Shown here in pieces: positions 5,340 to 58,866 of a DNA stretch of 64,000 bases. The position numbers and the translations under genes were made by a program. Origin of the DNA: a bacterium (GTDB lineage: Bacteria > Patescibacteriota > Doudnabacteria > UBA920 > VMFF01); NCBI GenBank assembly GCA_021811585.1, contig JAJZOG010000014.1, positions 2,577 to 66,576 of the forward strand. The letters run 5' to 3'. Numbering within the stretch: position 1 is the first letter of the stretch; every line of letters begins with the position of its first letter. The notes under the pieces are model-generated. The model had not been told where the DNA came from, searched no databases, and was given only the letters and a program-made list of their open reading frames with translations.

Positions 5340-7262
5340 ATGGATGTCAACCAATTTGCTTCGGAAAAAAATTTGAAAGACGCGAGCAGCGGCAATATCG
5401 GCGCTGGCAATGGAAATATAGGCAATGGATCACAGCCGCCATCTCCGAAAATACCGGAAGAACTTGTTTTTAAAGTGATGCCCAAAGGATTTCCATTGCC
5501 AAAAATAAATTTTAAACAACCTGCGCCCGAGCCTGTGGCCATGGCCGCGCCTCATTCAACCGCGCCGGCGCCATCATCATCATTAGCATCGTCGCCATTG
5601 CCTCCGCCGCCTCCACCACCACTGCCGCCACAATCATCAGTGCCGGCGCCACAATCATCGCCGTCACCATTATCAGCGCCACGATCCTCGTCGCTACAAT
5701 CATCACCATCACAATCATTATATGGAATACCCCAAACTTTTGCGAAAAAAGCATCGCCGGTCCCACCTTTAAAATCCTTGCCAACCTCGATGCCGCCCCC
5801 AAGGGCAGCTCCAATTTCACAGGTTCAATTTTCACATGCTTCGCAGGCAGCGCAACCGCAAACTCCGCAGCTCGGGGCCGCTGGCGCACCAGCATCAAAT
5901 AATGCAGGGCAATCTCCTAATGCAGGACAATCTCCGAGTTCACTCGGCCTGCTTCAGAACGATTTTGATGCCGGCCTGTTTCAGAGCAGAATGTCCGGCA
6001 AGAAAATTTTATTTTTTGCCGGCATAGGAATTATTGTTTTGATTCTGCTGGGCAGCGGCATTTATGCCTACACGCGGCTCTCGAAAAAATCTCCGGCTCC
6101 AATTCCCGCGTCCCAAACAGCCGGTTCCGGGGAAATTCCGGGCAGCGGAAATTCACCGGGAGCAGGGTCGTCGCCAAATTCGAGTCAGACCCCGTCCGTA
6201 CAATCTCAAATACCATCTTCTTGGCTGCAAAAATATTTCGGTGAAACTGTCTGCGCAGACCAAAATGTCTGCGGCGATAATGCAGATCCTGATCACGACG
6301 GCCTCACAAATTTGGAAGAATACAAACTCGGCACTGATCCGAACAACCCCGACAGTTCTGGGAGCGGGATTGCGGATGGCGATAAGGTTCATGTTTTTAA
6401 TTTGGATCCGCTCTCGGATCACACCGCGGGCATTTTAAAATACACCGATGCAGGCGATTTAAAATATAAATATAATTCGCGTACGCACCAGCCATTCACA
6501 GCCGAAGATTTGGCGAAAATCGCAGCGAACATAAAACAATATGGGTTGCACGAACCCACAATTATGACCTTAGGACCCGATCTTGTAAATTTTTACACCA
6601 ACGGCGGCGGTGTGGCGGCGGGCGGGAATTCGAGCCCCACAGAAGAGCTTAACCGCGATACCCAGCGCGCGGACACCATCAAACAAATTAGCTTTGCTCT
6701 TATAAAATATCAACAAAGCAACGGCTCGTATCCGGATACAAATGATTTCACGACAATGATAGCAGATATCCAACCCATTCTTTCCGCAGGCCGAGCGATA
6801 AATACAACGGATCCGCTTAACACGCCCCCTTATATTTATGGCTACCAGTCCGTAAATAGCGGCGCGGATTTTAAGCTCTCTTATTTTTCCGAAACGCAGA
6901 ATCAGGAAATTGATATTGATGCCGCGGAAGCCCTGCAGGAGTACAGCAAGGATCAGGAAGACCAGCATGATGCCCAGCGGCAAAACGATTTGCAGCAAAT
7001 TGCAAATGCTTTGGAATTGTACTCGAATGACAATGCCAACCCAGCCGATCCTTCACAAAAGGTTTTTCCTTCAGAAACAAGCTGGAAAGAGGCGATTTCA
7101 AAATATCTTTCGCCAATCCCCGTTGACCCGAAAACAGACCAAGATTACACTTACACAGTTTCCCCGGACAACACACGTTTTGCGATTCAGGCGGTTTTAG
7201 AAGACCCTCCGACAGGGGACAAAGGTTATGTTTGTTCCCAGGATGGGTGTACGTATTACTAG
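5340..7262 (+). CDS. Proline-rich membrane-anchored protein with two pseudopilin-core-like repeats (hypothetical)
   Basis: It has a PPPPPPLPP tract, a single TM (ILFFAGIGIIVLILLGSGIYAYT), DPDHDGLTNLEEYKLGTDPNNPD (calcium-binding-like), and two segments resembling the GspG/pilin core (ADTIKQISFALIKYQQSNGSYP; DLQQIANALELYSNDNANP). Confidence 0.55.
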   Translation: MDVNQFASEKNLKDASSGNIGAGNGNIGNGSQPPSPKIPEELVFKVMPKGFPLPKINFKQPAPEPVAMAAPHSTAPAPSSSLASSPLPPPPPPPLPPQSSVPAPQSSPSPLSAPRSSSLQSSPSQSLYGIPQTFAKKASPVPPLKSLPTSMPPPRAAPISQVQFSHASQAAQPQTPQLGAAGAPASNNAGQSPNAGQSPSSLGLLQNDFDAGLFQSRMSGKKILFFAGIGIIVLILLGSGIYAYTRLSKKSPAPIPASQTAGSGEIPGSGNSPGAGSSPNSSQTPSVQSQIPSSWLQKYFGETVCADQNVCGDNADPDHDGLTNLEEYKLGTDPNNPDSSGSGIADGDKVHVFNLDPLSDHTAGILKYTDAGDLKYKYNSRTHQPFTAEDLAKIAANIKQYGLHEPTIMTLGPDLVNFYTNGGGVAAGGNSSPTEELNRDTQRADTIKQISFALIKYQQSNGSYPDTNDFTTMIADIQPILSAGRAINTTDPLNTPPYIYGYQSVNSGADFKLSYFSETQNQEIDIDAAEALQEYSKDQEDQHDAQRQNDLQQIANALELYSNDNANPADPSQKVFPSETSWKEAISKYLSPIPVDPKTDQDYTYTVSPDNTRFAIQAVLEDPPTGDKGYVCSQDGCTYY

Positions 7263-27528: not shown

Positions 27529-28875
27529 ATGAAAAAGAAATTTTATATTTGGGCGAGTATTTTTGCGGGCATAGTGGTTATTGCGGCGATTTTATTAATT
27601 ATTGCGGCAAGGCACCAAAACATGCAAAGTGGGGGCAATGGTTTTTTATCAGCGCCCAAAATAGCGAAATTGCAGCCAAACGCCTTTGGAAAACTTAATG
27701 CCAGCACAACGGAACAGGGCAATGGGCAGGGTGCATTGGCAGCGGCAGCAGGTACGCCGGTTTCAAGCACAAACGCACAAAACGAAAGTGTCGCAGCTGC
27801 TGCCGGAACCGCGGGTGCGGGAATTGCCCAGAGATTAATTCCGTACCGTCCATATGAATATGTTTATGCGGGAGGGGAGTTGCCGAAAATTCCGAAGCAG
27901 ATGAATGTTTATGAGAGGAATCTATTGGCAAACAATAACAATACGGGAGAAGGGATGATTGGGGTTTTAAATAATTTGGGTTTTGGCCTTGCGGATTTAA
28001 CAAGTTTCAAAAACGCGGGAATCAATTCATTTACAATAACCCAAGATCAGCCATACGGATACGCTATAACCGTAAGTGTTCCGGACCAGAGCGTAAGCGT
28101 AAATATAAATTGGCAGGAATGGCCGCATCCGTCTCCGATACTGGGAGCAAATCCATTGGCAAGCAACAGCAGGGCATCTATTCCCAATGACGATAAAATT
28201 CTCGCGGATGCAAACGCATTTTTAAAAGAGCATAATATTAACGTTAACTTGTACGGCTCTCCCGAGGTTTTAAAAAATTCTTGGCCGCCAATTATGTCTC
28301 CTCAGGGCAGCGCATCTCAGGAGAACAGCGCGTCTCAGGGTAAATCCGCGGGTGCGCCAGGCATGCCATATTATCGGCCGCAGTCAGCTGAAGTTGTTTA
28401 TCCGTTGAAGATTGACGGAGGTGAAGTCTACATGCAGGGTGGAAATAAAACCGGCTTGACGGTCAGCTATGATTTTGCTTCCGGGAAAGTGAGTGGCGTC
28501 CAGGGATTGGATTCTCAAAATTATAAGGGTTCGCTTTATGGTCTTGAGACTGATGCCCAAAAAATTATTGCTCAGGCCTTGGGCAGTAACGGGACACCAA
28601 ACAAAAATGTCCAATCGCTAAAAATTGATTTGGGCACGCCATTCTTGACGTACGAACAGATGTGGAATTACACAAATTACCAAAATAATGAAATTTTTGT
28701 GCCAAGCTTGGTTTTCCCGGTGCAAAACGCGCCGCAGGGATATTATGGGCCCAAGTTTGTGCTGGTGGCATTGCCAGAAGATATTTTTAAAAACTCCGGC
28801 ATTAATAAAGTAATTGAACCAATGGCGCCGGGTTTTTCTCCGGCGGCGCAAGGTGCTGCATCGCCAAACAATTAG
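27529..28875 (+). CDS. Secreted/anchored hypothetical protein (N-terminal TM, 448 aa)
   Basis: Signal-anchor MKKKFYIWASIFAGIVVIAAILLIIAA; no recognizable catalytic motifs. Confidence 0.5.
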   Translation: MKKKFYIWASIFAGIVVIAAILLIIAARHQNMQSGGNGFLSAPKIAKLQPNAFGKLNASTTEQGNGQGALAAAAGTPVSSTNAQNESVAAAAGTAGAGIAQRLIPYRPYEYVYAGGELPKIPKQMNVYERNLLANNNNTGEGMIGVLNNLGFGLADLTSFKNAGINSFTITQDQPYGYAITVSVPDQSVSVNINWQEWPHPSPILGANPLASNSRASIPNDDKILADANAFLKEHNINVNLYGSPEVLKNSWPPIMSPQGSASQENSASQGKSAGAPGMPYYRPQSAEVVYPLKIDGGEVYMQGGNKTGLTVSYDFASGKVSGVQGLDSQNYKGSLYGLETDAQKIIAQALGSNGTPNKNVQSLKIDLGTPFLTYEQMWNYTNYQNNEIFVPSLVFPVQNAPQGYYGPKFVLVALPEDIFKNSGINKVIEPMAPGFSPAAQGAASPNN

Positions 28876-29022: not shown

Positions 29023-30069
29023 CTAGCCGTTTTCATTTGATGCTGTCCATTGCGCGTGTATATGATAATCCGGGCGGCCCACGCAGGTATTTATATCTTT
29101 TTGGGCTTTAGGGCCGTTTAAATCAGTTAAATCAAGAACTAAAAATTGATGTTGGGAAACGCCCGGTAAATTACATTCAACCGCTGCTAGTAATAAGCCG
29201 TTGTTTTGGAGTTTTTGGAGAATTGCCGGTATTTGGTCCTTGCTTGATGGTACGAAATCAACGGCCTCACCGGCATAATGCGGATCATTTTGAGAAGCGT
29301 GGTGGCCGCTTGTGATAGAAGTTACGGATACTCTTAGATTATTGTTTGCTACTTCAATAAGCCCCTTAATCAAATTATCATCAATTGATGTTGTTCCTGC
29401 ATCGCATATTTTGCCCGGGCCGTCATATTGCGCGTCTTGGCCGGCTGCGATTGCCGACAAATTTAGCAGCGGCCCGTTTGGCGGGCAATCCGTGCCAGGC
29501 GCTAAAAGTATTTTACCCTCGCTTGCCAACTTTAAAAGCGCTTTTGCATTATCTTGGGTGCCCGCATCAGGAGCATTTGCCGCGACTTGCGGCGTTGTCG
29601 GTATAGTGCAATTATTGGCATCGCAATTTATGGGCGCAAGAGGTTCTACATTTATATTCGTGAGGTTGGGGTCAATGGTATTTAGGAATATATAAGATCC
29701 AAAAAGAATTACCAGCCCGAAAATCGTTGATCTTATGAATTCCTTGCCTTTTTCTTGTTTGCCGCTCATGTACATGTAACCGGCAAGCACAAACATCAGC
29801 ACTGCCACAAAACTGCCAATGCTGATTGCGAATATATAAACATTATTTAAGCACCTGGCAAAATTATATTGGGAAGTGTTACTGCTGTTGTCAGGAGTGC
29901 AAATCATGTCAAAGGTGTTTGAGGAGCTCGAATTCGGGCCTGATGGCGATGATCCCGAGGCAAAAGCCCGCGGTGTCAGGGATGTTATGAGGAAAGCTGA
30001 ATAAAATAAGGTAATGATTGCAAAGAGCAAAAGAGCTAATTTTTTTTCTGAATTTTTTATTTTTTTCAT
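29023..30069 (-). CDS. Membrane protein with C-terminal LAS/M15-like zinc-peptidase motif (putative peptidoglycan peptidase)
   Basis: Two TMs; SGHHASQNDPHYAGEAVDF resembles the H-x6-D ... H-x2-G-x-A-x-D zinc site of VanX/M15 peptidases. Adjacent to the M23 peptidase gene. Confidence 0.4.
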   Translation of the reverse strand: MKKIKNSEKKLALLLFAIITLFYSAFLITSLTPRAFASGSSPSGPNSSSSNTFDMICTPDNSSNTSQYNFARCLNNVYIFAISIGSFVAVLMFVLAGYMYMSGKQEKGKEFIRSTIFGLVILFGSYIFLNTIDPNLTNINVEPLAPINCDANNCTIPTTPQVAANAPDAGTQDNAKALLKLASEGKILLAPGTDCPPNGPLLNLSAIAAGQDAQYDGPGKICDAGTTSIDDNLIKGLIEVANNNLRVSVTSITSGHHASQNDPHYAGEAVDFVPSSKDQIPAILQKLQNNGLLLAAVECNLPGVSQHQFLVLDLTDLNGPKAQKDINTCVGRPDYHIHAQWTASNENG

Positions 30070-30124: not shown

Positions 30125-31468
30125 TTATGAATTTAAGAAATCCAGAGGATTATAGGAGTGGCCATATGGCACTTGGTATGGACCGTATTTGTTTTGGTAT
30201 TTTCCGGGCGCAATTCCAAAGCTCGAGGCGTCAAAAACGCTAAAATGCAAATGAAATCCCCGCTCAGGCCCGTAAAGAATGCGCGTCGTGTTCCCGGTGT
30301 TGCCTTCAAATCCAATTAAGTCCCCTTGTTTTACATTTTGTCCCGGCGTCACAATAAACGACATTAAATGTCCATATAAAGTAATAATCTGGCTGTTTTC
30401 TATTGCAATATTATGTTTGATTGCCACCCAATTTCCATAAGCCGCCTGCCCTGTTCCTGTCGCCTGCACCACCCCATCGGCAGCAGCATAAATTGGGCAT
30501 CCGGGCGGGCCGGCAATATCAACTCCATTATGAAAATCATAACCCAAAGCAGTGAACCCGGTGTTGCCGTATCCTTGGGTTATTATTCCTTGAAGCGGCC
30601 AAGCCAAAATGCCGCGTATGGGCGCAATGTTGCCGCCTTTTGCCATTGCTTGCTGGTTTAAATCCCCTATTTCTTGTGCGATTTCATTTTCTTCTGCTTG
30701 CGCGTTATTTAAAAGAACTTTGAATTTGTATTCCTGGCCTTTTGTGTCTGCAAGCAAGGCAACCTTTTGGGCTTTCTGGTCGCTTAAGCTCTGGTTGGCT
30801 CCTGTTAGCTGGGTTTTTAATTCGTTTAATTTTGCCAGCCGTTCGTGTAAATTTTGGTTATCGCTTTCCAGGTCAGCTTGCAATTTTTTTACGCCTATGA
30901 GAATATTATAAACTTTATTTTGAAGCGAGTGCGTGTATTGGATTTGATTGAGAAAATCCGAAAAATTGGAGGTGCCTAATTCCAGTTGAACTTGGGAGAG
31001 ATTGTCGTCTTTGTCGAGATTCACCAGCAAGTCCGCAAGCGTTTGTTTTTCCTGGGCAGCTTGCGCGGTTTTATCCGCGATTTGCTTTTGCACCGCTGCT
31101 ATTTGCAGGGCGTCATTATTTATATTTGTTTGGGTTGCCTGGAGCTGCAGTTCTGTTTCCTGCATTTCCAAATCATAAAGATTTATTTCGTTGCGCAAAT
31201 CCGCCTGCTGCTGCAATTTCTGAACCACTTGGTTTTGCAATTGGCCGATTTGTTGGTTTAATTGGCTGATCTGTGCCAGTTGTGATTGGCTGGGTTTTTT
31301 ATCTTGCGCCTGGGGTGCAATTCCCGGAAGATTTGAGCTCGCATGTAAAAAATGCCGCGGCACAACCAGGGCCGCGGTGATTCCTAAAATACAGAGAAAT
31401 AAGCTCCCTATCAAAATAAAAGAGGCGGCAGTAGAAATTTTTATTTTATTTTTGTTTCCAAACCGCAT
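30125..31468 (-). CDS. Coiled-coil M23 peptidase (EnvC/NlpD-like murein endopeptidase)
   Basis: N-terminal TM and a long Q/L-rich coiled coil. The C-terminal LytM domain has GYDFHNGVDIAG...GHLMS...GQNVKQGDLIGFEGNTG and HLHFSV. Confidence 0.8.
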   Translation of the reverse strand: MRFGNKNKIKISTAASFILIGSLFLCILGITAALVVPRHFLHASSNLPGIAPQAQDKKPSQSQLAQISQLNQQIGQLQNQVVQKLQQQADLRNEINLYDLEMQETELQLQATQTNINNDALQIAAVQKQIADKTAQAAQEKQTLADLLVNLDKDDNLSQVQLELGTSNFSDFLNQIQYTHSLQNKVYNILIGVKKLQADLESDNQNLHERLAKLNELKTQLTGANQSLSDQKAQKVALLADTKGQEYKFKVLLNNAQAEENEIAQEIGDLNQQAMAKGGNIAPIRGILAWPLQGIITQGYGNTGFTALGYDFHNGVDIAGPPGCPIYAAADGVVQATGTGQAAYGNWVAIKHNIAIENSQIITLYGHLMSFIVTPGQNVKQGDLIGFEGNTGNTTRILYGPERGFHLHFSVFDASSFGIAPGKYQNKYGPYQVPYGHSYNPLDFLNS

Positions 31469-49804: not shown

Positions 49805-50881
49805 TTATACTATAACGCCGCCGCCCAAACAAATTTTCCCCTTGTACATAACCAAGCTTTGGCCTGCCGCAACCGCACGCTGAGGAGAAAAAAAACGTAC
49901 GTGATATTTGCCCTCTTGACCGCTTTCGCGCAATTCCAAACCTATTGGCTGTTGCTGGTGCCTGAACCGTCCGCGGCATTTTAAGGGCGATGTGCCCGGG
50001 CGCGAAATCCAATTTACGGCGCTAATTTCAATTTCGTTTTTAAGCAATTCGCTATGTTCCGGATTTTTGCTGACCACTAATGTGTTTGTTTGCAATTCTT
50101 TGCGTACCACGTAATATGGCCCGGATCCGCCGACGCCAATCCCCTGCCTTTGTCCCAAAGTGTAATACGCGGCGCCCTGGTGTTCGCCGATTTTGTCGCC
50201 CGAAGTAATTTCGACTATCGGCCCTTTTTTTGGCGCGATTTTCTGCTGCAGGAATTTATCCAATTCTACTTTTCCTACAAAGCACAAGCCCATGCTTTCT
50301 TTGCGTCCGGCATTTGGCAGCCCGAATTTGCGCGCCATTGCGCGCACCTCGGATTTTAAATATCCGCCTATTGGGAACAAAATATGCTTGAGCTGCTCCG
50401 GCTGTAAATTATAAATAAAATATGTTTGATCTTTGAATTCATCTTTTGCCCGCAAAAGGCATCTGTTTTTTATCCGTGCATAATGGCCGGTTGCCAGAAA
50501 ATCGAAGCCCATTTGCATGGCGCGCTCGTACAAGAGTTTGAATTTTATTTCTTTGTTGCACATGACGTCCGGGTTGGGCGTGCGGCCGGCGGCATATTCG
50601 TTGAAGAAATATTCCATAACTTTTTGCGAATATTCTTTTTCAAAATCAAAGGTGTGCAGCGGAATGCGCAAATGCGCGGCAACTTGCAAAGCACTGCGTC
50701 TGTCCTCGAGCCATGGGCATTCGTTGGAAATCAGGCCTTGGTTTGAGGTCCAGTTTTTCATAAAAACAGCTTCAACTTTATACCCTTTTTTCAAGAGCAA
50801 AGCAGCGCTCACGGCGGAATCAACGCCGCCGGAAAGCGCCACAAGGACTTTTTGCTTATTCTGCAAATAATTTTTCAACAT
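49805..50881 (-). CDS. mnmA: tRNA-specific 2-thiouridylase MnmA
   Basis: PP-loop VALSGGVDSAV, catalytic Cys region, C-terminal MnmA domain. Confidence 0.9.
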   Translation of the reverse strand: MLKNYLQNKQKVLVALSGGVDSAVSAALLLKKGYKVEAVFMKNWTSNQGLISNECPWLEDRRSALQVAAHLRIPLHTFDFEKEYSQKVMEYFFNEYAAGRTPNPDVMCNKEIKFKLLYERAMQMGFDFLATGHYARIKNRCLLRAKDEFKDQTYFIYNLQPEQLKHILFPIGGYLKSEVRAMARKFGLPNAGRKESMGLCFVGKVELDKFLQQKIAPKKGPIVEITSGDKIGEHQGAAYYTLGQRQGIGVGGSGPYYVVRKELQTNTLVVSKNPEHSELLKNEIEISAVNWISRPGTSPLKCRGRFRHQQQPIGLELRESGQEGKYHVRFFSPQRAVAAGQSLVMYKGKICLGGGVIV

Positions 50882-51857
50882 TCTTGTTTAGGAAATCCTC
50901 AAAACTTATTCTTGGGTTTGCGTTTTTTTCCCGGCCAAACCCCTGATATAAATTGTAAATCCGTTCGCGCAGCAAATCTTTTTCATATAAATTGAAATAT
51001 TCTTTCAGCCGCGTTTTAAATTCGCGAAGCGTTTTTACGTTCATGTCGGTGAGCCGTTTTTTGGTATCCGGTTCTTGGCTTAATATTTTCGAAAATTGCG
51101 TTTCATCCATGGAGGCCGTCGCGCGTTCCATATCTTCAAAAGTGGGCAATTTCTTATGGTCGGCAAAAAAATCATTATAGGTTCTGATCAGTTCTTCATT
51201 TAAAATTGAGTATCCGGAATTGCCGTATAAGCTTTTTAATTTGATGCCCGCCAGCTCGAGTATTTTTTCTTCGGATATTTTTCCGCGCAGTTTTTCTGTC
51301 AGCGGATTTATAATGGCATGGAGAAATTCATGCCTGGAATTCTCAAAATTTCCTGTGCGGGCGACAATAATTCCTGTACTGCTGACGTAAAAAGACATTC
51401 CGCCGTGATTTTGCGCCAGGATTGTGTCGCCGGGCATTATTTCGATTTGAGAAGGTATGGTTTTTGGATCAGGGCCGAAAAATGAAATTGTCTCGGCGAT
51501 TTTTTCGCGCAATTGCGGAAGGTGTTCTGCCCACCACGAGATTTTCGAAAGAGGCGGTTCGTGCGTTCCTGCTTTTTGCCATCCCGCGTAGCTGTTTTGG
51601 ATTCGTTCAAAAATTTCCCCGGCATTTTTAACATGCGGTTTTTCGCGTTTTATCAGCGAAAAAATTTGCTCTTTCCATTCGGGGTGGCCCAATAAAAGCG
51701 CAAGATTAAAAATTGCTTCTTCATCCCCGACTTCGGCATAAGCCGGCAATTGTCCTGTTATAAACGCCAAAGAATTTTCCCAGCCCGCCTGTAGTTCCGG
51801 GATCTGAACTGCTTCGGATTCTTGCGCGGTTTTTTCACGATTTATTTCCCCGCGCAT
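50856..51857 (-). CDS. Hypothetical protein with HExxH motif (putative metallohydrolase), 333 aa
   Basis: SRHEFLHAIINP contains HEFLH. Translationally coupled: 1-nt gap to the upstream ATPase gene, overlap with mnmA. Confidence 0.45.
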   Translation of the reverse strand: MRGEINREKTAQESEAVQIPELQAGWENSLAFITGQLPAYAEVGDEEAIFNLALLLGHPEWKEQIFSLIKREKPHVKNAGEIFERIQNSYAGWQKAGTHEPPLSKISWWAEHLPQLREKIAETISFFGPDPKTIPSQIEIMPGDTILAQNHGGMSFYVSSTGIIVARTGNFENSRHEFLHAIINPLTEKLRGKISEEKILELAGIKLKSLYGNSGYSILNEELIRTYNDFFADHKKLPTFEDMERATASMDETQFSKILSQEPDTKKRLTDMNVKTLREFKTRLKEYFNLYEKDLLRERIYNLYQGFGREKNANPRISFEDFLNKNVEKLFAE

Positions 51858-51858
51858 A

Positions 51859-53820
51859 TTATTCCGAAGTTATTTTGTGCGATTCCCCGGGTTTTAAAAT
51901 TTTTTTATGTTGCTGGCCGTGATTATTCCTGTCCTGAGCGCTGTTTCCCGTGCTCAAACTTTTTGCCAGGGTATTTGCCAAACCGGCGGCCAGGTTTTGT
52001 GATTTTTGCCGGTTCATTTTAGCAGCTGTTTCCCAAATGGCATTATCTTTTTTTGCCATTGGCCTGGCGGGGTGGTTCGCAAAATGGTTTCCAGAATGGT
52101 TATTTGAATGCATGTTCCTGGTTTGGCCGGTATTATTTTTGCCGTAGGAATTGTGCGGCTGGGGGCTGCGCGCATTATGTGTTTGGAAATTATTCGGCCG
52201 GGGATTGTATTGGGAATTATATTGCCGGGATGCATGCGGTTCGATGTTTTCGTATTTTGTTTTTTGCGCTTCCTTTGGTTCCCGGCCAGGTTCCTTTGTT
52301 TCCTTGTCTGCTTCTGTATTTGTTTTTTTGCCTGCTGTATTCGTTTCCCAGTCTGGTGCTGCGTTCGATTGTTGTGCCGCCATATTTTGCGCCGCACTGC
52401 TGGAGACCGTTTTTTCCATTTCAGCCGGCGCTTGTGGCGCAACCGCTGTTTCCACTTCTTCTTCGCCCTCCTGGCGCGCGCCGCTGGCAATTACAGCGGC
52501 TTGTTCGTGATATTCCTGCCCCATCCAGCGCAATATTTTATCTTCAACTTCAGCAACGGGATTTGCATATCTTTCCCGTGAGATGCGAATTACTTTGTCC
52601 GTATTGGCTATTTTTCTGTGGGTTTCCGGCGCCAAGGTTGTGGCCGTAAAAGGGTCGGAAGCCACGCCGTTAATCATTAATTTTAGAATGATGTGATGTT
52701 TGGGCAGATTCACCAGATCGTTTTCCGTAAATTGCGGCGCAAATTCTTTTTCTAAAAATTCCGAATCAGCCGCGCCCACGCGAAAAGTGACGATTGTCCC
52801 GACGTTGCCGAAAACCGCGTCGCGCACTTTTGTGCTTCTGCCGTCGCTGCCTGTGAGCTGGCCGATATATTGATGCCCGATTGTGAGGTTCAGGCGGTAT
52901 TTGCGCGCCTCGGAAAGTATTGTGGCAAATGATTCCGTGGCAAAATTTTGGAATTCGTCGACGTACAAAAAGAAATCGTGGCGTTCCTGCTCGCTGATAT
53001 CGACGCGCGAAAGCGCGGCCAGCTGGAGCTTGGTGATAAGCATGGCGCCGAGCAAATCGGAATTGTCCTCGCCGATGCGCCCTTTGGCAAGATTCATTAA
53101 GATTATTTTTTTGTTGTCCATGAGCGAACGCAAATCAATGGTGCTTTTCGGCTGGCCGACAATGTTGCGTATAATTCCAGATGAAAGGAATTGCCCGACT
53201 TTATTTTGGATTGGCGCAATGGATTCCATGCGGTATTTTTCGTTCCAATTCGCGAATTCATCCACCCAGAAGGATTTGACCATCGGGTCTTTGATATTGT
53301 CGACAATCCGTTTGCGGTATTTTTTGTCTATCAGCATTCGGGAAATTCCGAGCAGGGTGTTGCCGGGAGAATCCAAAAGCGCGAGTATGGCGTTATTTAA
53401 GATATATTCCATGCGCGCGGACCATAAATTAGCCCAAATTTTTGTGAACACGCCCATAAGCCCCGAAGCAACCAGATGCTTGTAATTCGGGTCAACCGCT
53501 TCCAAAATATTAAAAGCAATCGGAAATTCCCTGTCAGCGGGATTGAAATAAACCACGTCGTTCACGCGGCTTGAAGGCACGTAATCCAAAATTTTCTCAA
53601 CTGAATCCCCGTGCGGATCCACAAACGCCAAGCCGTTGCCGTTCGCTATGTCTTGGATAATCATGTTTTCCATGAGCGTTGTTTTGCCCATGCCGGTTTT
53701 TCCGATGATATACATGTGCCGGCGCCGGTCTTCGCGCTTTATGCCAAACGGCACTTCCTTGTGGCGGAAGTTTGTCTTGGCGAAAATTGTGATGTCGTTG
53801 TTATCCTGTTCTGCGTCCAT
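51859..53820 (-). CDS. TraD/TrwB/VirD4-type coupling-protein-like P-loop ATPase lacking N-terminal TM segments, with long disordered Q/N/K-rich C-terminal tail
   Basis: Walker A IIGKTGMGKTT; LAFVDPHGDS, YFNPADRE and FNILEA blocks, in spacing, match F-TraD/TrwB. Walker B-like FFLYVDEFQNF. Residues ~430-653 are low complexity. Confidence 0.6.
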   Translation of the reverse strand: MDAEQDNNDITIFAKTNFRHKEVPFGIKREDRRRHMYIIGKTGMGKTTLMENMIIQDIANGNGLAFVDPHGDSVEKILDYVPSSRVNDVVYFNPADREFPIAFNILEAVDPNYKHLVASGLMGVFTKIWANLWSARMEYILNNAILALLDSPGNTLLGISRMLIDKKYRKRIVDNIKDPMVKSFWVDEFANWNEKYRMESIAPIQNKVGQFLSSGIIRNIVGQPKSTIDLRSLMDNKKIILMNLAKGRIGEDNSDLLGAMLITKLQLAALSRVDISEQERHDFFLYVDEFQNFATESFATILSEARKYRLNLTIGHQYIGQLTGSDGRSTKVRDAVFGNVGTIVTFRVGAADSEFLEKEFAPQFTENDLVNLPKHHIILKLMINGVASDPFTATTLAPETHRKIANTDKVIRISRERYANPVAEVEDKILRWMGQEYHEQAAVIASGARQEGEEEVETAVAPQAPAEMEKTVSSSAAQNMAAQQSNAAPDWETNTAGKKTNTEADKETKEPGREPKEAQKTKYENIEPHASRQYNSQYNPRPNNFQTHNARSPQPHNSYGKNNTGQTRNMHSNNHSGNHFANHPARPMAKKDNAIWETAAKMNRQKSQNLAAGLANTLAKSLSTGNSAQDRNNHGQQHKKILKPGESHKITSE

Positions 53821-53867
53821 AATTTAAGTATACCCCCAAATTGAATTTTGCGCTTGCGGAATTTAGT

Positions 53868-55142
53868 TTAGCCGGCAACAGGCAAATTTGCAGGTGGCTG
53901 GCCTTTTTTGACTTCAATTCTTTCAACAGGCGGAGTTGTCGTTGTTGCCAGAGGAAAATGAAAAAGCGTTGTAAGTTCTTCGGCATTTAGGACCACGGGA
54001 TCAGCGCCAATCCACATGTCGCGGTTCGCAAAGCCTTCTATAAAGCGTTCTTTTCTTTTGGCAATTACCCAATCAACAAACGGCTGTTCCAGGGTTTGGA
54101 AAACCTTATATGAATAACCTGTCCAAATTTTCATGTTGGGCTTGAGATTGTTCGTTGTGATGCCTGAAAATTGGCGGAACGCGCCGACAATTCCCGTTTT
54201 TTTAGTGTTGTCCATTTTATCTTTCGGCGCAATATATAAACTGCGGATTTTGGTTCCCCAGCCAACCTTGGACATTTTTGTTTCAACAGCAAGCAGCGTG
54301 CGTTTTTCGCCTTCCGTGAGCTTTTGCACTGCCGCAATTCTTTCTTCCTCTTTTTTTACCGACGTTTTGCCTGTAAAAAAATTTATAAACTTTCCAAAAG
54401 CGCCGATTTTTTCCTCGGGCTTTACCCCTTTGAATGCATTCACCGTTTCTTGCGCGTGCGGCTGCCAGGCGGAATCTTTCATTGGCAGTATGTCAATTTG
54501 CACTGCCATAAGTTCGTGCGGTTCGGCTTTTGAAAGCGCTTCCAGGAGCCCTGCCAGAGGATCTAGAATTTTGTTTTCCGAAATCGGATGCTCGAAGTCC
54601 TTATAGGTTTTAATTGGGTAGGCATAATCTCTAAGCATACCCCATTCAGTGCCCCATAAATCCCAAGAGCTTTTTTCAGGGTCCCATTTTTTGAGATGTT
54701 CCATGTAATCATGCACCTCTGTAATTTCAGCGCTCGGAAATTGCGCGTAAAAAGCGCTTTCAACGAGATTTACGTATTTGTCCGGAACGCGCATGATGTA
54801 TGATATTTTTCCGCCTAAGCTCACGATTTCCAGTGAAAACCAAAGCTGCAGTTGCCCTTCCAGGTATTTGCCGGCCCAGGTAATTGTGCTTTCGAGCGCA
54901 TGCAGCTGCGCGAAAATCTGCTCGACAGCAAGCAAGCTCTGGAGATTTTCTTTTTCCACCTTGATGTGCAGAAATTTCCAAGTTATGCCCTTAAGGTAGC
55001 GCCCATTAATGGCCATCATATAAATTTGAAATGCCAGCCAGAGCGCCAGCAGCCCGAAAATCACCCAGCCGCCGTGCACAAAGACAAACCACGCTTCAGA
55101 AAACGTGGCTAGCGAAGCGTTTATTGTGGAAGACCAAATCAT
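53868..55142 (-). CDS. Membrane protein (2 N-terminal TMs + ~350-aa soluble domain), partner of the TraD-like ATPase (hypothetical)
   Basis: The N-terminal TMs are FVFVHGGWVIFGLLALWLAF...; same strand and operon. Confidence 0.5.
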   Translation of the reverse strand: MIWSSTINASLATFSEAWFVFVHGGWVIFGLLALWLAFQIYMMAINGRYLKGITWKFLHIKVEKENLQSLLAVEQIFAQLHALESTITWAGKYLEGQLQLWFSLEIVSLGGKISYIMRVPDKYVNLVESAFYAQFPSAEITEVHDYMEHLKKWDPEKSSWDLWGTEWGMLRDYAYPIKTYKDFEHPISENKILDPLAGLLEALSKAEPHELMAVQIDILPMKDSAWQPHAQETVNAFKGVKPEEKIGAFGKFINFFTGKTSVKKEEERIAAVQKLTEGEKRTLLAVETKMSKVGWGTKIRSLYIAPKDKMDNTKKTGIVGAFRQFSGITTNNLKPNMKIWTGYSYKVFQTLEQPFVDWVIAKRKERFIEGFANRDMWIGADPVVLNAEELTTLFHFPLATTTTPPVERIEVKKGQPPANLPVAG

Positions 55143-55145
55143 GTG

Positions 55146-56270
55146 TTACTTTCCCGCCAAAGCGTATTTGTTTTTGTTTACTTTGGTGAACAATTTTCTA
55201 TTCGAAAGCGCGGCCAGCACGGTGTTTCTCTTTACCAGCCGTTTTTTAAGCACGGCATCTATAATCTGGTCGCGGTTAAGAGGCTCTTTTGCCGTTTTGA
55301 GGATCTCTGCAATAACATCAGCGACAATGCCTTTTTGATAGCCCCATTCAGTGAGGGCGTAAATTCCCCTGCCAACCAGGACAAAACGCGGGTCTTTTAT
55401 GAGTTCATTATGGACTGTTTCTTTGTGCGCCACTCGCTTATCAAAGCCGTATTTATTTATAAGCTCCGTGATGGCGGAATAATGTTCCGGCTTTTTGTGG
55501 TGCTTCATGACAACATAGGCCTTATCGCCAACATCGCGTGGCTTAATTTCCTGCCAATTTGCCAGGCCGTATTCCTCGAACGGATTTTTCTCTATTTCCC
55601 TACTGAGGTTTAAATAAGTGCGCAGGACTTTTTCATTTACCTGCATTTCATTATCGCGATAAATATCCGTCTGCTTCAGTTTCTCTATAAGCTCCAATTC
55701 ATGCACCGGCTTTCCTTCTTTTTTCAAAATGCCCTTCGCAGTTTCTATAATATTTTTGAAAAATTCGTGGTTGTAATTTACGGAAGCCCAGGCATTGTGC
55801 ATGAACTCGTTTTCTTTCACTTCCAAAAGCTCTTCCGCAATATTAAGCAGGAAGAGGATGGAGCGCCGCTCTTCTTCGGTTGCTTCGGAGCTGAGCATTT
55901 TTATAAGCTCCATTTCTTTTATAATTTTTCCGCAATCCGAAATTATGCTCACCAATATTTTAATGGCTTCGGCAAGCTCGTGGTCAGCCAATTGCGCGCG
56001 CAAAAATTTAAGCGATTCTTTTTCTATTTGGCGGACGCGTTCGCGCGTTAGCCCGTGCTCCTTGCCTATTGCTTCCAATGTTTTTGCCGTAAAACCAAGC
56101 AATCCGAAACGTTTTGCGAGGATCATTTTATCCCGTTCTTTGAGTAAATCCAGTATTTTGCCGGCAGCCAGTGTTGGTTCGAAATTTTGCAATGAAACGC
56201 TGTGTTGCGCATTTATGATCTTATCCAGGATGCCCGGAATTTGCTTATTGTTTCCGTCAGTTTTTTCCAT
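55146..56270 (-). CDS. Sigma-70 region-4-type HTH protein with C-terminal winged-helix-like domain (putative DNA-binding/regulatory protein)
   Basis: DKMILAKRFGLLGFTAKTLEAIGKEHGLTRERVRQIEKESLKFLR matches sigma-70 region 4.2. There are no regions 2/3, so it is not a complete sigma factor. Confidence 0.5.
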   Translation of the reverse strand: MEKTDGNNKQIPGILDKIINAQHSVSLQNFEPTLAAGKILDLLKERDKMILAKRFGLLGFTAKTLEAIGKEHGLTRERVRQIEKESLKFLRAQLADHELAEAIKILVSIISDCGKIIKEMELIKMLSSEATEEERRSILFLLNIAEELLEVKENEFMHNAWASVNYNHEFFKNIIETAKGILKKEGKPVHELELIEKLKQTDIYRDNEMQVNEKVLRTYLNLSREIEKNPFEEYGLANWQEIKPRDVGDKAYVVMKHHKKPEHYSAITELINKYGFDKRVAHKETVHNELIKDPRFVLVGRGIYALTEWGYQKGIVADVIAEILKTAKEPLNRDQIIDAVLKKRLVKRNTVLAALSNRKLFTKVNKNKYALAGK

Positions 56271-56394
56271 ATCGGTATAGTATCATAAATGATTATGGAT
56301 GTCAAATCTGTACAATACAACATGTGTTCCAGAGCAATAAACTGTTAAAATTTTAATAAAATAATGCTTGAAAATTTCTTAATTCAGGTTTTCT

Positions 56395-56431
56395 AAAAAA
56401 ATTAAGCCACCTAATTTTTTTAGGCGGCTTA
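56395..56431 (-). terminator. Rho-independent terminator downstream of secF
   Basis: Minus-strand reading: taagccgcctaaaaaaattaggtggctta followed by a T-run. Confidence 0.6.
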
Positions 56432-56453
56432 ATAATTTTATTACATTGTGCGG

Positions 56454-57362
56454 CTATGCCCTGGTTTTTGCCGTCTTTGCACTGGACCATCTTTGCCAGA
56501 GCACTAAAATCGGACTGGCTATGAAAATTGAAGAATACGTGCCTGCGATTATGCCGATGAACAGCGCCAGCACAAAATATTTTATTGTAGCGCCTCCGAA
56601 CAGCAGCAGCGCAAGCAAAACAAATAGAACGGTTAATGAAGTGTTCAAGGATCTCACCACGGTCTGGTTGATGCTGTGGTTAACAATAAATTCAATTGGC
56701 TGGCCTGCCTCAACTTTTAGATTTTCACGGATTCTGTCGAAAACAACAATGGTATCGTGAACCGAAAATCCGAGAACAGTGAGCAAAGCCGTAACAAACA
56801 AGCTGTCCACCTCAACTCCCAGAAAATGCCCGAGAATCGAAAAAATTCCGGCAACAACGAACAAATCGTGCAAAAGCGCGACAATCGCAGACCACCCGAA
56901 TTTCCAGGAAGTAATGGGTTTGGTTACTTTGCGAAAAGCGTAAGCAATGTAAAAAACAATTCCAAAGGCCACTAGTATAAGTTCATAAACTGCCTTGGAT
57001 TTTAATTCCTGGCCGATCGAGGGCCCGATTGATGTGTAGGAAATTTCGTTAAAATCTCCTACTGCCTTTTTCAAATCCGTATCTATTTTATCGTGCTCGG
57101 TTTTGTCGATGGGCTTGGTTTCAATAATTACTTCGTTTGTGCCCGCTTGCTGGACTTTGAAGCCGCCGATGTTTTCGGAACTTAAAACGGTTTGGATTTT
57201 TGCATAATCCGGCGCGTGCGAAAACTGCAGTTGGGCTTCAGTGCCACCTGTAAAATCAATACCCAACTTGAGGCCGAAAACAGAAAGTGAAATAATTCCG
57301 GCGAGGAGAATTATGCCCGAGACAGCGAACCAAAATTTATAATGTTTGATGATGTTTAACAT
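56454..57362 (-). CDS. secF: Protein-export membrane protein SecF
   Basis: LGIDFTGGTEAQLQF and 6 TMs. The ATG at 57362 is preferred; the track's GTG at 57407 would overlap secD. Confidence 0.85.
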   Translation of the reverse strand: MLNIIKHYKFWFAVSGIILLAGIISLSVFGLKLGIDFTGGTEAQLQFSHAPDYAKIQTVLSSENIGGFKVQQAGTNEVIIETKPIDKTEHDKIDTDLKKAVGDFNEISYTSIGPSIGQELKSKAVYELILVAFGIVFYIAYAFRKVTKPITSWKFGWSAIVALLHDLFVVAGIFSILGHFLGVEVDSLFVTALLTVLGFSVHDTIVVFDRIRENLKVEAGQPIEFIVNHSINQTVVRSLNTSLTVLFVLLALLLFGGATIKYFVLALFIGIIAGTYSSIFIASPILVLWQRWSSAKTAKTRA

Positions 57363-57366
57363 AAAT

Positions 57367-58866
57367 TTAGGAAATTTTTTCTTCTGTTCCTTGCGCAATA
57401 TCCGCACTCTTTTTTTTCTTCGAAGCGCCGAAAAGCCACGGATGCGTTAAAATGTTATGGCCCACAAACATGTGCAAGAAGGTTTCGGTTACAGTAATTG
57501 CCGTGAACAGAGAAATAATAATGCCGATTGCCAAAGTCACTGCAAAGCTTTTGATTTCAGGAGTTCCGAAAATGTAAAGTATCAAAGTTGTGATTAAGCT
57601 TGAAGCATTGGAATCGCGGATTGAAGGCCAGGCGCGCTTAAAGCCGTCGTCCAGTGCCAATTGCACGTCTTTGCCCAGGCGAAGCTCCTCTTTGGTGCGT
57701 TCAAAAATCAAAATATTGGCATCAACAGCCATGCCTATGGAAAGAATGAAGCCCGCAATGCCTGCCAAGGTTAGCGTAACAGGGTTCAGCCCCCCGGCAA
57801 ACATTAGGATAAAATATGCGAGAATTGCGAGAAGCCCGAAAATCCAGCTTGTGGTTAAGGCAAGTATGAAGAAAATACCAACTAAAATTACCGCTGTAAT
57901 GGAAATTCCGATTTTAAACACAGCGAAAGCCACGAGCCCGTAAATTACAAGCGCCAAAGCAGCAAGCAGGCCCGGAAACCTGTAATACGCAATCATAAAA
58001 ATTATAATCAAAATAAGGCCTATGATTCCCGCTATAATGCTTTTTTGTATTGAACTTTGCCCGAGCGTTGCGCCGATGGTCTGCTGGGAAACAAGATGGA
58101 TGGGCACTGGAAGCGCGCCGGAATTAAGGCGGGTTGCAAGCTGTTTTGCCTGATCCACAGTGAAATTGCCTGTAATTACAGCTTGCCCGTTGGTAATTGG
58201 AACCTGGACCGTTGGGGTTGAAAGCGGACTGCCGTCAAGAAAAATTGCCACCGGCTTGCCGACGTTCTGGGTGGTAATCTGCGAGAAAAGCTTTGTTCCT
58301 TCTGAATTAAATTGCAATAAAATTTCCGGCTGGCCTGTCTGGGGATCAAACTGCACGCTGGCGCTGCTTAAATCTTTGCCTGTGAGATCAGTCGGCAGCC
58401 ATTGCGAATTTAAGCTGATGTTCGCCTGCCCGCTGCTATTTACTGTTGCCGAAGGATTTGGATTTTGCGTGCGAAATTCTAAAAACGGCGTTTGCCCGAT
58501 AACTTGAATGGCCTGGTTCACATCCGTAATACCAGGGAGTTCAACTACAATTTGATTTGTGCCGCTGGTTTCCACAAGCGGTTCCTGTACGCCAAAATTA
58601 AAAATCCGGCGCTCAATAACAGAGCGCGCAGAATCCATCGCTGCGCCTCGTTTTGAAGGAGCGATGTTTGAAAGGTCGCCTTGATATGTCAGGCGGCTGC
58701 CGCCCTTAAGATCCAGGCCCAAGCGGGTTTGAAATTGCTTGGTGTAATTAATGCGGATATTATGCAGATCGATTTTGCTGCCGCTTGGTAAATCAATATA
58801 AAGTGCAAAAGCGGCAAGCAATAGTATAAAAATAAAGGTCAGGTAGAGCCGTAATTTTTTTTTCAT
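57367..58866 (-). CDS. secD: Protein-export membrane protein SecD
   Basis: LGLDLKGGSRLTYQ, a large periplasmic domain, C-terminal 5-TM bundle. Confidence 0.9.
   Translation of the reverse strand: MKKKLRLYLTFIFILLLAAFALYIDLPSGSKIDLHNIRINYTKQFQTRLGLDLKGGSRLTYQGDLSNIAPSKRGAAMDSARSVIERRIFNFGVQEPLVETSGTNQIVVELPGITDVNQAIQVIGQTPFLEFRTQNPNPSATVNSSGQANISLNSQWLPTDLTGKDLSSASVQFDPQTGQPEILLQFNSEGTKLFSQITTQNVGKPVAIFLDGSPLSTPTVQVPITNGQAVITGNFTVDQAKQLATRLNSGALPVPIHLVSQQTIGATLGQSSIQKSIIAGIIGLILIIIFMIAYYRFPGLLAALALVIYGLVAFAVFKIGISITAVILVGIFFILALTTSWIFGLLAILAYFILMFAGGLNPVTLTLAGIAGFILSIGMAVDANILIFERTKEELRLGKDVQLALDDGFKRAWPSIRDSNASSLITTLILYIFGTPEIKSFAVTLAIGIIISLFTAITVTETFLHMFVGHNILTHPWLFGASKKKKSADIAQGTEEKIS

Follow-up and report, generated by a model that had tools for sequence, protein, structure and literature searches.

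What does an ATPase of the kind that serves conjugation do on a chromosome where the rest of a conjugation machinery is missing from its surroundings? The question is raised by a 64-kb stretch of a Doudnabacteria genome of the Patescibacteriota (GenBank assembly GCA_021811585.1, contig JAJZOG010000014.1, positions 2,577 to 66,576), hereafter the window, in which four open reading frames (ORFs) lie between secDF and mnmA. We call them A, B, C and D in transcription order; these genes and all features within them given below are on the minus strand. Gene A (55146-56270) encodes a protein of 374 amino acids (aa), gene B (53868-55142) a 424-aa membrane protein assigned to DUF8128, gene C (51859-53820) a 653-aa ATPase, and gene D (50856-51857) a 333-aa HExxH protein. 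An earlier note, made from the letters of the window, had read the four genes as one operon for a translocation system, with C as a type IV coupling protein (T4CP) possibly anchored to the membrane by B. We find that B and C are two halves of one protein family, a VirB4-like membrane half and a VirD4-type motor half, that A is their usual partner gene, and that D stands outside the conserved module.

B and C are two halves of one protein family

We compared the window with related loci and contigs, labelled L, which include 80 loci obtained from a scan of one genome per GTDB species and selected by similarity to C. Their genomes are labelled Doudna-, Moran-, Uhr-, Buchanan-, Falkow-, Kerfeld-, Wolfe-, Nealson-, Colwell- and Portnoy-bacteria and Paceibacteria. 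B stands directly upstream of C on the same strand at 63 of the 75 loci with enough upstream DNA, and at three further loci it lies beside a tandem paralogue of C, here called C', instead. The two also occur as a single polypeptide. The fused protein L085:3227-5458 aligns with residues 102-424 of B and then, eight residues on, with residues 19-429 of C, while L011:141-2711 is a full-length example with an N-terminal transmembrane (TM) helix. An exhaustive HMMER search with the ATPase domain of C matched 23,141 clusters at 50% identity, and the 150 closest included 53 B-C fusions (860-1130 aa) and 84 C-only proteins. The fusions join the C-terminus of B to the N-terminus of C.

These data show that B and C belong together as the halves of one protein family, which in the window genome is divided at the linker between its domains. 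The architecture of the family is a TM helix, a VirB4-like domain (assigned to DUF8128), a VirD4/TrwB-type ATPase with a predicted all-alpha insertion, and a probably disordered tail. The adjacency and the natural fusions also uphold the proposal that the membrane function of the motor is supplied by the neighbouring protein.

The C' paralogues start with a PPPPxLP peptide, which in the window is the conserved, disordered C-terminus of B, indicating independent fissions at the same interdomain linker more than once. At some loci C' (approximately 440-580 aa) lies directly upstream of C and has an intact Walker A motif, GKSGVGKS, and Walker B motif (L059:9911-11230, L063:9842-11215, L081:453-1826, L041:7565-9112, L061:1464-3203, and L074:9380-10837). 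In L074, B and C' stand together and C is found elsewhere, on the opposite strand. A 2.5-kb match in L059, L063, and L081 was considered as an intein in C and rejected, as a hidden Markov model scan identified it as the tandem paralogue C' with its Walker motifs intact.

In some genomes a fused paralogue of greater divergence lies within 10 kb of the split pair, and both are surrounded by housekeeping genes. Two such fused TM-DUF8128-ATPase proteins, L011:141-2711 (856 aa) and L065:11200-13695 (831 aa), have as neighbours genes for cysteinyl-tRNA synthetase (CysRS), Dus, CorA, an HD protein, a pseudouridine synthase and a TsaB-like protein. Split and fused copies in one genome fit the roughly two T4CP homologues per genome found in a survey of Patescibacteria (PMC12102498). 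Many TPA_asm records of metagenome-assembled genomes that contain the locus (L014, L015, L017, L018, L023, L033 and others) are titled 'uncultured Gammaproteobacteria', 'Bdellovibrionales' or 'Candidatus Saccharibacteria'; these organism labels look unreliable and were not used for taxonomy.

C is a coupling-type ATPase without a membrane anchor

The nucleotide-binding domain of C (aa 1-441; 52498-53820) is of the VirD4/TrwB class and contains a Walker A motif, GKTGMGKT (aa 40-47; 53680-53703), and a Walker B motif, FFLYVDE (aa 283-289; 52954-52974). The Pfam profile TrwB_AAD_bind aligned to aa 21-351 with 45.3 bits against a gathering score of 20.5, TraG-D_C matched at its threshold (22.1 bits against 22), and DUF87 also passed. 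In NCBIfam, TraD models matched in part, and the model of the VirD4-like CD1115 family matched over nearly the full length. By sequence, the PDB relatives were TrwB and DotL, with TrwB (1e9r) at an E-value of 6e-5 and aligned around both Walker motifs, and DotL and TrwB were also the best fold matches. The FtsK_SpoIIIE profile stayed below threshold (13 bits, gathering score 24), and of the VirB4 C-terminal ATPase type only NCBIfam VirB4_plasma appeared, at 22.7 bits against a cut-off of 590. Because of these profile, PDB, and fold matches, we class C as a TM-less, VirD4-class member of the FtsK-HerA superfamily, in line with the VirD4/TrwB/TraD assignment made earlier. Hydropathy likewise agrees with the claim that C has no N-terminal membrane anchor of its own. 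No hydrophobic segment was found (the maximum Kyte-Doolittle 19-residue window is 1.17), and Walker A starts at residue 40.

For aa 1-441, AlphaFold2 (AF2) gave a low-confidence model, with a predicted local distance difference test score (pLDDT) of 58.7 and a predicted template modelling score (pTM) of 0.57; the close similarity of the alignment rows (76-85% identity) is the probable cause. It shows a RecA-like core and, between the Walker motifs, an all-helical insertion (aa ~114-235) that, in this low-confidence model, sits where TrwB has its all-alpha domain. About 190 columns are invariant in an alignment of 40 homologues.

The remainder of C (aa 442-653; 51862-52497) is a low-complexity tail that is probably disordered. 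Its composition (12.7% hydrophobic residues over aa 441-653, rich in A, N, K, E, S, and Q) agrees with the long disordered-type tail that had been described. Low-complexity tails are present in all 73 full-length C orthologues, with a median length of approximately 190 aa. The peptide at the end of the window protein, KPGESHKITSE (51862-51894), fits a terminal motif, PG(Q/E)x(I/V)(K/R)F, which by strict pattern occurs in 21 of the 73 orthologues, compared with 0.84 expected from shuffles. At 56 loci the tail carries a CxxC-x17-CxxC treble-clef zinc finger (for example at aa ~466 in L012, ~458 in L015, and ~486 in L025), and three example sequences scored 54, 49 and 19 bits with Pfam zf_Tbcl_2 (gathering score 27). 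The window protein and its closest Doudnabacteria-like relatives are without this finger, which C of the window has lost.

B probably combines a single membrane helix with a VirB4-like domain

B has one hydrophobic stretch, a TM helix at aa 16-47 (55002-55097) supported by both hydropathy and modeling, and positive charges that follow it predict an N-out/C-in orientation. The AF2 model is confident (pLDDT 85.6, pTM 0.81; 41 homologues) and shows a single long N-terminal helix followed by alpha/beta domains. B is thus more likely a one-TM protein than the two-TM protein first described. Its cytoplasmic alpha/beta domain (aa ~53-395; 53958-54986) has a VirB4-like fold in the model and by Foldseek. 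The top 14 Foldseek matches are all TrwK chains, with E-values of 4e-6 to 1e-3, and the next match lies above 5e-3. TrwK/VirB4 is the only strong structural match of B by two methods, so that B, once regarded as a generic anchor, carries a specific cytoplasmic domain. The P-loop ATPases that match C are absent from the 60 matches listed for B, and for this reason the modeled domain most likely represents the non-ATPase N-terminal domain of VirB4. The protein ends in a linker peptide, KKGQPPANLPVAG (aa ~409-424; 53871-53918), that is conserved, yet disordered.

B contains no Walker A motif or P-loop. The possibility that B is a degenerate copy of the ATPase was rejected, since hhalign of the B and C profiles gave a probability of 0.2% and B is without Walker A. 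PF26449 (DUF8128) is assigned by precomputed annotation to the window protein, where it is marked "weak", to nearly all homologues of B and to most of the fused proteins inspected, L096 not among them; our own Pfam scan listed none for B. In the literature searched, we found no relevant paper on DUF8128.

A is the usual partner of the B-C family

A carries a sigma-70 region 4 at aa 38-95 (55986-56159; Pfam Sigma70_r4, 45.5 bits) and two winged-helix domains of the HARE-HTH type, the best stretch being aa 249-309 (55344-55526; Pfam HARE-HTH, 52.3 bits). It also passes NCBIfam RNAP_delt_lowGC, a model of the N-terminal part of the RNA polymerase (RNAP) delta subunit, with 43.4 bits against a cut-off of 42. 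The earlier description of A as keeping only the helix-turn-helix (HTH) of sigma region 4.2 therefore missed its delta-like part. The PDB matches are confined to region 4 of RpoS and RpoD, region 2 was not matched, and all NCBIfam sigma models remained far under their cut-offs. Because A is without sigma region 2, we do not consider it a sigma factor.

A lies upstream of B-C at 50 of 71 loci; where it is absent, secDF and B-C are contiguous. In L094/L095 (with an 8-nt gap) and in L097, A stands directly upstream of a fused BC gene with no secDF nearby. The linkage is thus independent of secDF, which supports a functional tie. A is the usual partner gene of the B-C family and, judged from its domains, probably a DNA-binding or regulatory subunit. 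Nothing relevant on proteins that combine sigma region 4 with HARE-HTH was found in the literature searched.

The module is chromosomal and highly conserved

Across the sampled lineages, the median identity to the window is 63% for the ATPase domain of C, 55% for SecA, 46% for SecF, 45% for SecD, 44% for MnmA, 36% for A and 31% for B, a comparison biased in favour of C because the loci were selected by similarity to C. Of 59 loci, 33 have secF within the 4.5 kb upstream, and 18 of 44 have mnmA within the 6 kb downstream. The secDF setting noted in the window is therefore frequent. It is not obligatory, as A-BC also occurs without secDF. In several lineages division and cell-wall genes abut A-B-C or A-BC (L003:13560-21863, L094:11698-16474, and L097:5649-10620), among them mraY, mur ligases, ftsW, murJ, an ftsQ-like POTRA gene, ddl, murB, murG, and a gene for a penicillin-binding protein. 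Either function or the inheritance of an old gene arrangement may lie behind this adjacency.

Pfam scans of most larger ORFs and the precomputed gene table revealed no relaxase, VirB4, or integrase in the window. Genes for VirB3, VirB6, and VirB8 were found neither there nor in the flanks of relatives, and the inspected relatives likewise showed no linkage to a relaxase or to a VirB4-type type IV secretion system (T4SS). The statement that no relaxase, VirB4, pilin or integrase lies nearby thus holds for all but the pilin, as a borderline VirB2/TrbC-pilin-like gene lies approximately 21 kb away. Only three relatives came from viral contigs, one of them probably a misbinned fragment of a candidate phyla radiation (CPR) genome.

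The proposal of a chromosomal module among housekeeping genes, as opposed to a conjugative element, is borne out by this context and agrees with the finding of Quinonero-Coronel et al. (2025) that only 148 of 5,713 VirD4-type T4CP homologues in Patescibacteria lie near virB4 (PMC12102498). According to the same study, 2,918 of 3,035 patescibacterial genomes contain such homologues, and their exaptation 'cannot be ruled out' (PMC12102498). The existence of such 'orphan' T4CP homologues, in about 96% of patescibacterial genomes, is therefore already published, and the module corresponds to them. It is chromosomal and highly conserved, and apparently inherited vertically. Uptake of DNA and its transfer to a host, which the note had named as possible roles, are speculative. 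In the literature searched, the DUF8128/VirB4-like partner, the split and fused architectures, the partner with sigma region 4 and HARE-HTH, and the tail features are undescribed.

A proposed split coupling-type motor

Taken as a whole, these observations are best explained, at what we judge to be about an even chance, by a split, membrane-tethered, coupling-type motor formed by B and C with A as partner, for which docking to a T4SS is the preferred role. B would insert N-out/C-in and hold a ring of C, presumably hexameric, against the membrane on its cytoplasmic side. The PPxxLP linker peptide of B and its VirB4-like domain would occupy the place of the N-terminal domain in a VirB4 protomer. 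The ring would spend ATP to engage and push a macromolecule, with DNA or nucleoprotein as the family default. Since a conduit cannot be built from a single TM helix in each subunit, a separate channel would be needed, and the motor would hand its substrate to one encoded elsewhere. The VirB4-like domain could dock the motor onto the VirB3/VirB6/VirB8-type platform of a distally encoded patescibacterial T4SS. In the R388 structures (PDB 7o41 and 8rtb), the N-terminal domain of VirB4 is reportedly the part that contacts VirB3 and VirB8. A would then be an operon regulator or an adaptor for the substrate DNA. To our knowledge, all characterised members of the family of C couple substrates to a T4SS, which we count in favour of this link.

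No T4SS other than that of Patescibacteria is known to be essential to the organism that carries it, and the patescibacterial system has been described without a coupling protein (PMC10633639, PMC12857230). In S. epibionticum, Wang et al. (2023) found an essential T4SS cluster without recognisable coupling and relaxase proteins (PMC10633639). That the B-C module is the coupling protein reported missing from this cluster is a tentative identification, with the balance tipping slightly against it. The most abundant T4SS component in Patescibacteria, also essential, is TrsD, a stand-alone remote homologue of the N-terminal portion of VirB4 that is mostly encoded next to virB4 (PMC12102498).

Several points weigh against a T4SS-docked coupling motor. 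On the structural side, the T4CPs lead DndH, the VirB4 C-terminal domain and HerA only marginally in the fold comparison of C, and the model compared is the low-confidence one. The likeness of B to VirB4 is structural only, at 9% identity, with the assignment to the N-terminal domain inferred; B matched neither Pfam CagE_TrbE_VirB nor any PDB profile, even at an E-value of 10. As for the link to a T4SS, few of the T4CP homologues lie near virB4, as given above, and they occur in 2,918 genomes compared with 2,417 of 3,035 for VirB4 (PMC12102498). In S. epibionticum a T4CP homologue, which may or may not be an orthologue of C, was non-essential for epibiotic growth, whereas T4SS genes were essential (PMC12102498). 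The relaxase is absent, and the ATPase domain of C is conserved like a housekeeping protein, ahead of SecA in the biased sample. In known systems, coupling proteins are dispensable for pilus biogenesis, so that non-essentiality in transposon sequencing (Tn-seq) is compatible with T4SS coupling.

Alternative explanations

Some of the same observations suit an autonomous housekeeping DNA translocase. Here A-B-C would be a membrane-tethered DNA pump without a T4SS, similar to FtsK/SpoIIIE or Streptomyces TraB, in which the winged-helix and HTH domains of A and, in most lineages, the zinc finger of the tail supply DNA recognition; we consider both the pump and this division of labour rather unlikely, though the pump is the main rival to T4SS coupling. 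It could act in chromosome segregation, in dimer resolution at division or in handling incoming DNA. A pump of this kind would account for the very high conservation of C, the stable housekeeping synteny with secDF and the closeness of division and cell-wall genes in several lineages, although such synteny may be inherited gene order. The conserved DNA-binding-type partner A, the treble-clef zinc finger of most C orthologues and the long low-complexity segment of C, which is generally known from FtsK as well, point the same way. So do the near-universal distribution, wider than that of VirB4, and the finding that epibiotic growth requires the T4SS but can do without the T4CP homologue (PMC12102498). 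However, of the VirD4-class ATPases that have been characterised none is known to work independently of a T4SS, the VirB4-like domain of B would have no obvious role, and at least one Saccharibacterium, TM7x, has a separate annotated ftsK (PMC10768705). A search of approximately 1.3 Mb of loci with an FtsK-type Walker A pattern returned only a fused BC paralogue, and this is too little sequence for inference.

It is improbable, though worth stating, that the module is an ancient hybrid of a VirB4-type N-terminal domain and a VirD4-type motor, kept by Patescibacteria as a core machine independent of the T4SS, which together with A forms the phylum's own membrane DNA pump. Its role would be chromosome segregation, or the exchange and scavenging of DNA at the host interface. 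Such a hybrid would preserve an ancestral architecture from which canonical coupling proteins later lost the N-terminal domain, and if this were true, coupling proteins began as housekeeping translocases and not as parts of conjugation.

We regard as very improbable the original form of the proposal, in which all four genes, including that of the HExxH protein, make up one dedicated translocation system; as far as D is concerned, it is largely refuted. The tight spacing in the window speaks for it, with a gap of 1 nt between C and D and an overlap of 26 nt between D and mnmA, as does a homologue of D beside a fused BC paralogue on an unrelated contig (L085/L086). Yet D is found at none of the 81 related loci and has only 17 homologues among 5.8 billion proteins, two other homologues of D have unrelated neighbours, and relatives often have mnmA shortly downstream of C, at the place that D takes in the window. 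The expected conservation of the neighbourhood across CPR genomes therefore applies to A-B-C, which is the conserved unit in place of a four-gene operon, and D is a lineage-specific passenger outside it.

D itself contains the motif HEFLH (aa 176-180; 51318-51332), which is invariant in 15 aligned homologues, as is the downstream residue E221. Weak similarity to DUF4932 is seen in 12 of these 15 members, and no PDB relative was found. The best homologue of D, L085:6001-7074, lies in divergent orientation beside the fused paralogue L085:3227-5458, among genes for a YafQ toxin, a PD-(D/E)XK protein and a GIY-YIG protein, and the arrangement recurs in L086. This is a second, independent co-location of D with B/C, and given the unrelated neighbours of the two other homologues it may or may not be chance.

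There is little reason to expect a relic of a mobile element or a defence function, whether a decayed integrative conjugative element or a defence ATPase like HerA, DndH-DptH or mad8 of MADS. PADLOC mad8 matched C with 44 bits, HerA matches were weak, and the fused paralogue in L085 does lie among toxin-antitoxin, PD-(D/E)XK and GIY-YIG genes. However, from class to class the split copy stays in the same housekeeping surroundings, genes for an integrase, a relaxase or defence partners are absent, and the distribution is conserved and near-universal, not patchy. A defence system was rejected as an assignment, since the mad8/HerA likeness is as remote as the T4CP matches, and no better, and the genomic context is contrary. 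Equally hard to credit is a motor associated with RNAP, in which A binds the polymerase through sigma region 4 (to the beta-flap) and its delta-like HARE-HTH domains and links transcription complexes to the ATPase: A does unite two modules that contact RNAP in characterised proteins and stays linked to B-C when the genomic surroundings differ, but the case is one of domain analogy, both modules are also ordinary DNA-binding folds, and A is missing at 21 of 71 loci, where secDF and B-C are contiguous.

Comparison with known systems

The split coupling-type motor that we favour shares with the T4CPs (VirD4, TrwB, TraD, and DotL) the FtsK-HerA nucleotide-binding domain of C, both Walker motifs and, in the low-confidence model, a helical insertion between them, and the tail of C could serve as an interaction peptide, as in F TraD. 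Unlike the T4CPs, C has no TM domain, and its anchor comes from B, in trans in the window and in cis in fused relatives. The N-terminal half is VirB4-like with one TM helix, whereas T4CPs have a two-TM hairpin. B-C is also without linkage to relaxase or mating-pair formation genes, is chromosomal, near-universal in the phylum, and unusually conserved, and most C orthologues have a treble-clef zinc finger.

The pIP501 conjugation system is an analogue for the division of labour between B and C and a precedent for anchoring a TM-less T4CP through a second protein. There the coupling protein TraJ has no TM domain, and its membrane anchor is taken to be TraI, encoded separately in its neighbourhood (PMC13037476). 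Unlike B-C, the pIP501 pair belongs to a full conjugative tra operon, relaxase and VirB4 included. Fused forms of TraI-TraJ are not described in the literature searched, in contrast to B-C.

Compared with VirB4 (TrwK, TraC, CagE), B and C together repeat its layout, in which the N-terminal domain lies close to the membrane and a RecA-like ATPase comes next, and the N-terminal TM helix of B recalls VirB3-VirB4 fusions. TrsD demonstrates that stand-alone proteins resembling the N-terminal part of VirB4 exist and are abundant in Patescibacteria (PMC12102498). In contrast to VirB4, B has no sequence-level similarity to the family, no VirB3, VirB6 or VirB8 gene is nearby, C scores as VirD4-type, and the gene is split in the window; the canonical patescibacterial VirB4 and TrsD genes lie at a different locus.

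With FtsK/SpoIIIE and Streptomyces TraB, the module shares the superfamily of its ATPase, which would likewise form a ring anchored at the membrane, as well as a long segment of low complexity and a housekeeping context. FtsK also has an associated winged-helix module, its gamma domain, in cis, where the B-C family has A in trans. The differences from FtsK/SpoIIIE lie in the failed profile match and in the anchor, which consists of one TM helix and a VirB4-like domain and not of four TM helices. Similarity to the FtsK-like ATPase EccC of the type VII secretion system (T7SS) with EccE is much weaker than to VirB4 or the T4CPs, and we found no other T7SS genes and no WXG100 substrates.

Gene layout and other features of the window

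The layout of the four co-directional ORFs in the window is exactly as first described in coordinates, sizes, gaps and flanks. A and B are separated by 3 nt and B and C by 47 nt, and the downstream neighbour of D is mnmA (49805-50881). Upstream of A lie secF (56454-57407) and secD (57367-58866), likewise secA, and, beyond secA on the contig of the window, murG (L001:1-285). A consensus scan placed a terminator-like hairpin of 14 pairs followed by a T run at 56401-56433 (minus strand), 21 nt past the stop codon of secF. Because of this hairpin, secDF and the A-B-C string would be separate transcripts in the window genome, where A-B-C-D-mnmA looks like a transcription unit of its own. The best sigma-70-like promoter match of the region, by consensus only, is TTGACA-17-TACTAT with an upstream TG (10/12) at 56277-56305 (minus strand); the region as a whole holds no more such sites than shuffled sequence would give. 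Only 6 nt separate the end of this match from the ATG of A, so that the mRNA, if the promoter is real, would be leaderless or nearly so.

The rest of the window is of housekeeping character, with genes for an AddB/UvrD-type helicase-nuclease, GyrB, ThyX, CTP synthase, glutamyl-tRNA synthetase (GluRS), a release factor (RF), FtsX, L1, a formyltransferase, a deformylase and glycosyltransferases. The nearest relatives of the window proteins are labelled Candidatus Doudnabacteria or Patescibacteria.

The pilin-like gene (29023-30069, minus strand) encodes a 348-aa protein with an N-terminal signal or TM segment and a two-helix hairpin that scores at threshold with T4SS_pilin (26.4 bits, gathering score 26.6) and TrbC/VirB2 (26.2 bits, 27.9). 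Its C-terminal domain of approximately 210 aa has the motif HHxxxxDPHxxGxAVDF and by appearance resembles the M15/VanY-type cell-wall peptidases. The gene lies beside an M23 peptidase gene (30125-31468, minus strand), and no VirB4 gene is near it. A 448-aa ORF (27529-28875, plus strand) gave no Pfam match, and a 640-aa ORF (5340-7262, plus strand) gave faint matches to TSP3 repeats and to a T2SS pseudopilin G-like family, both sub-threshold.

Significance

A large part of bacterial diversity belongs to the Patescibacteria, which are dependent on host cells. The study that counted their T4CP homologues left the architecture, partners and role of these proteins open (PMC12102498). What is added here is an architecture, with a VirB4-like DUF8128 anchor, a VirD4-type motor and a variable tail, encoded either split or fused, together with a conserved HTH partner. 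It provides a structural hypothesis for how a coupling ATPase may dock to a monoderm T4SS, and the evolutionary relationship between VirB4 and VirD4 gains a data point. Should the module instead act independently of a T4SS, it would represent a new housekeeping use of a conjugation-type motor.

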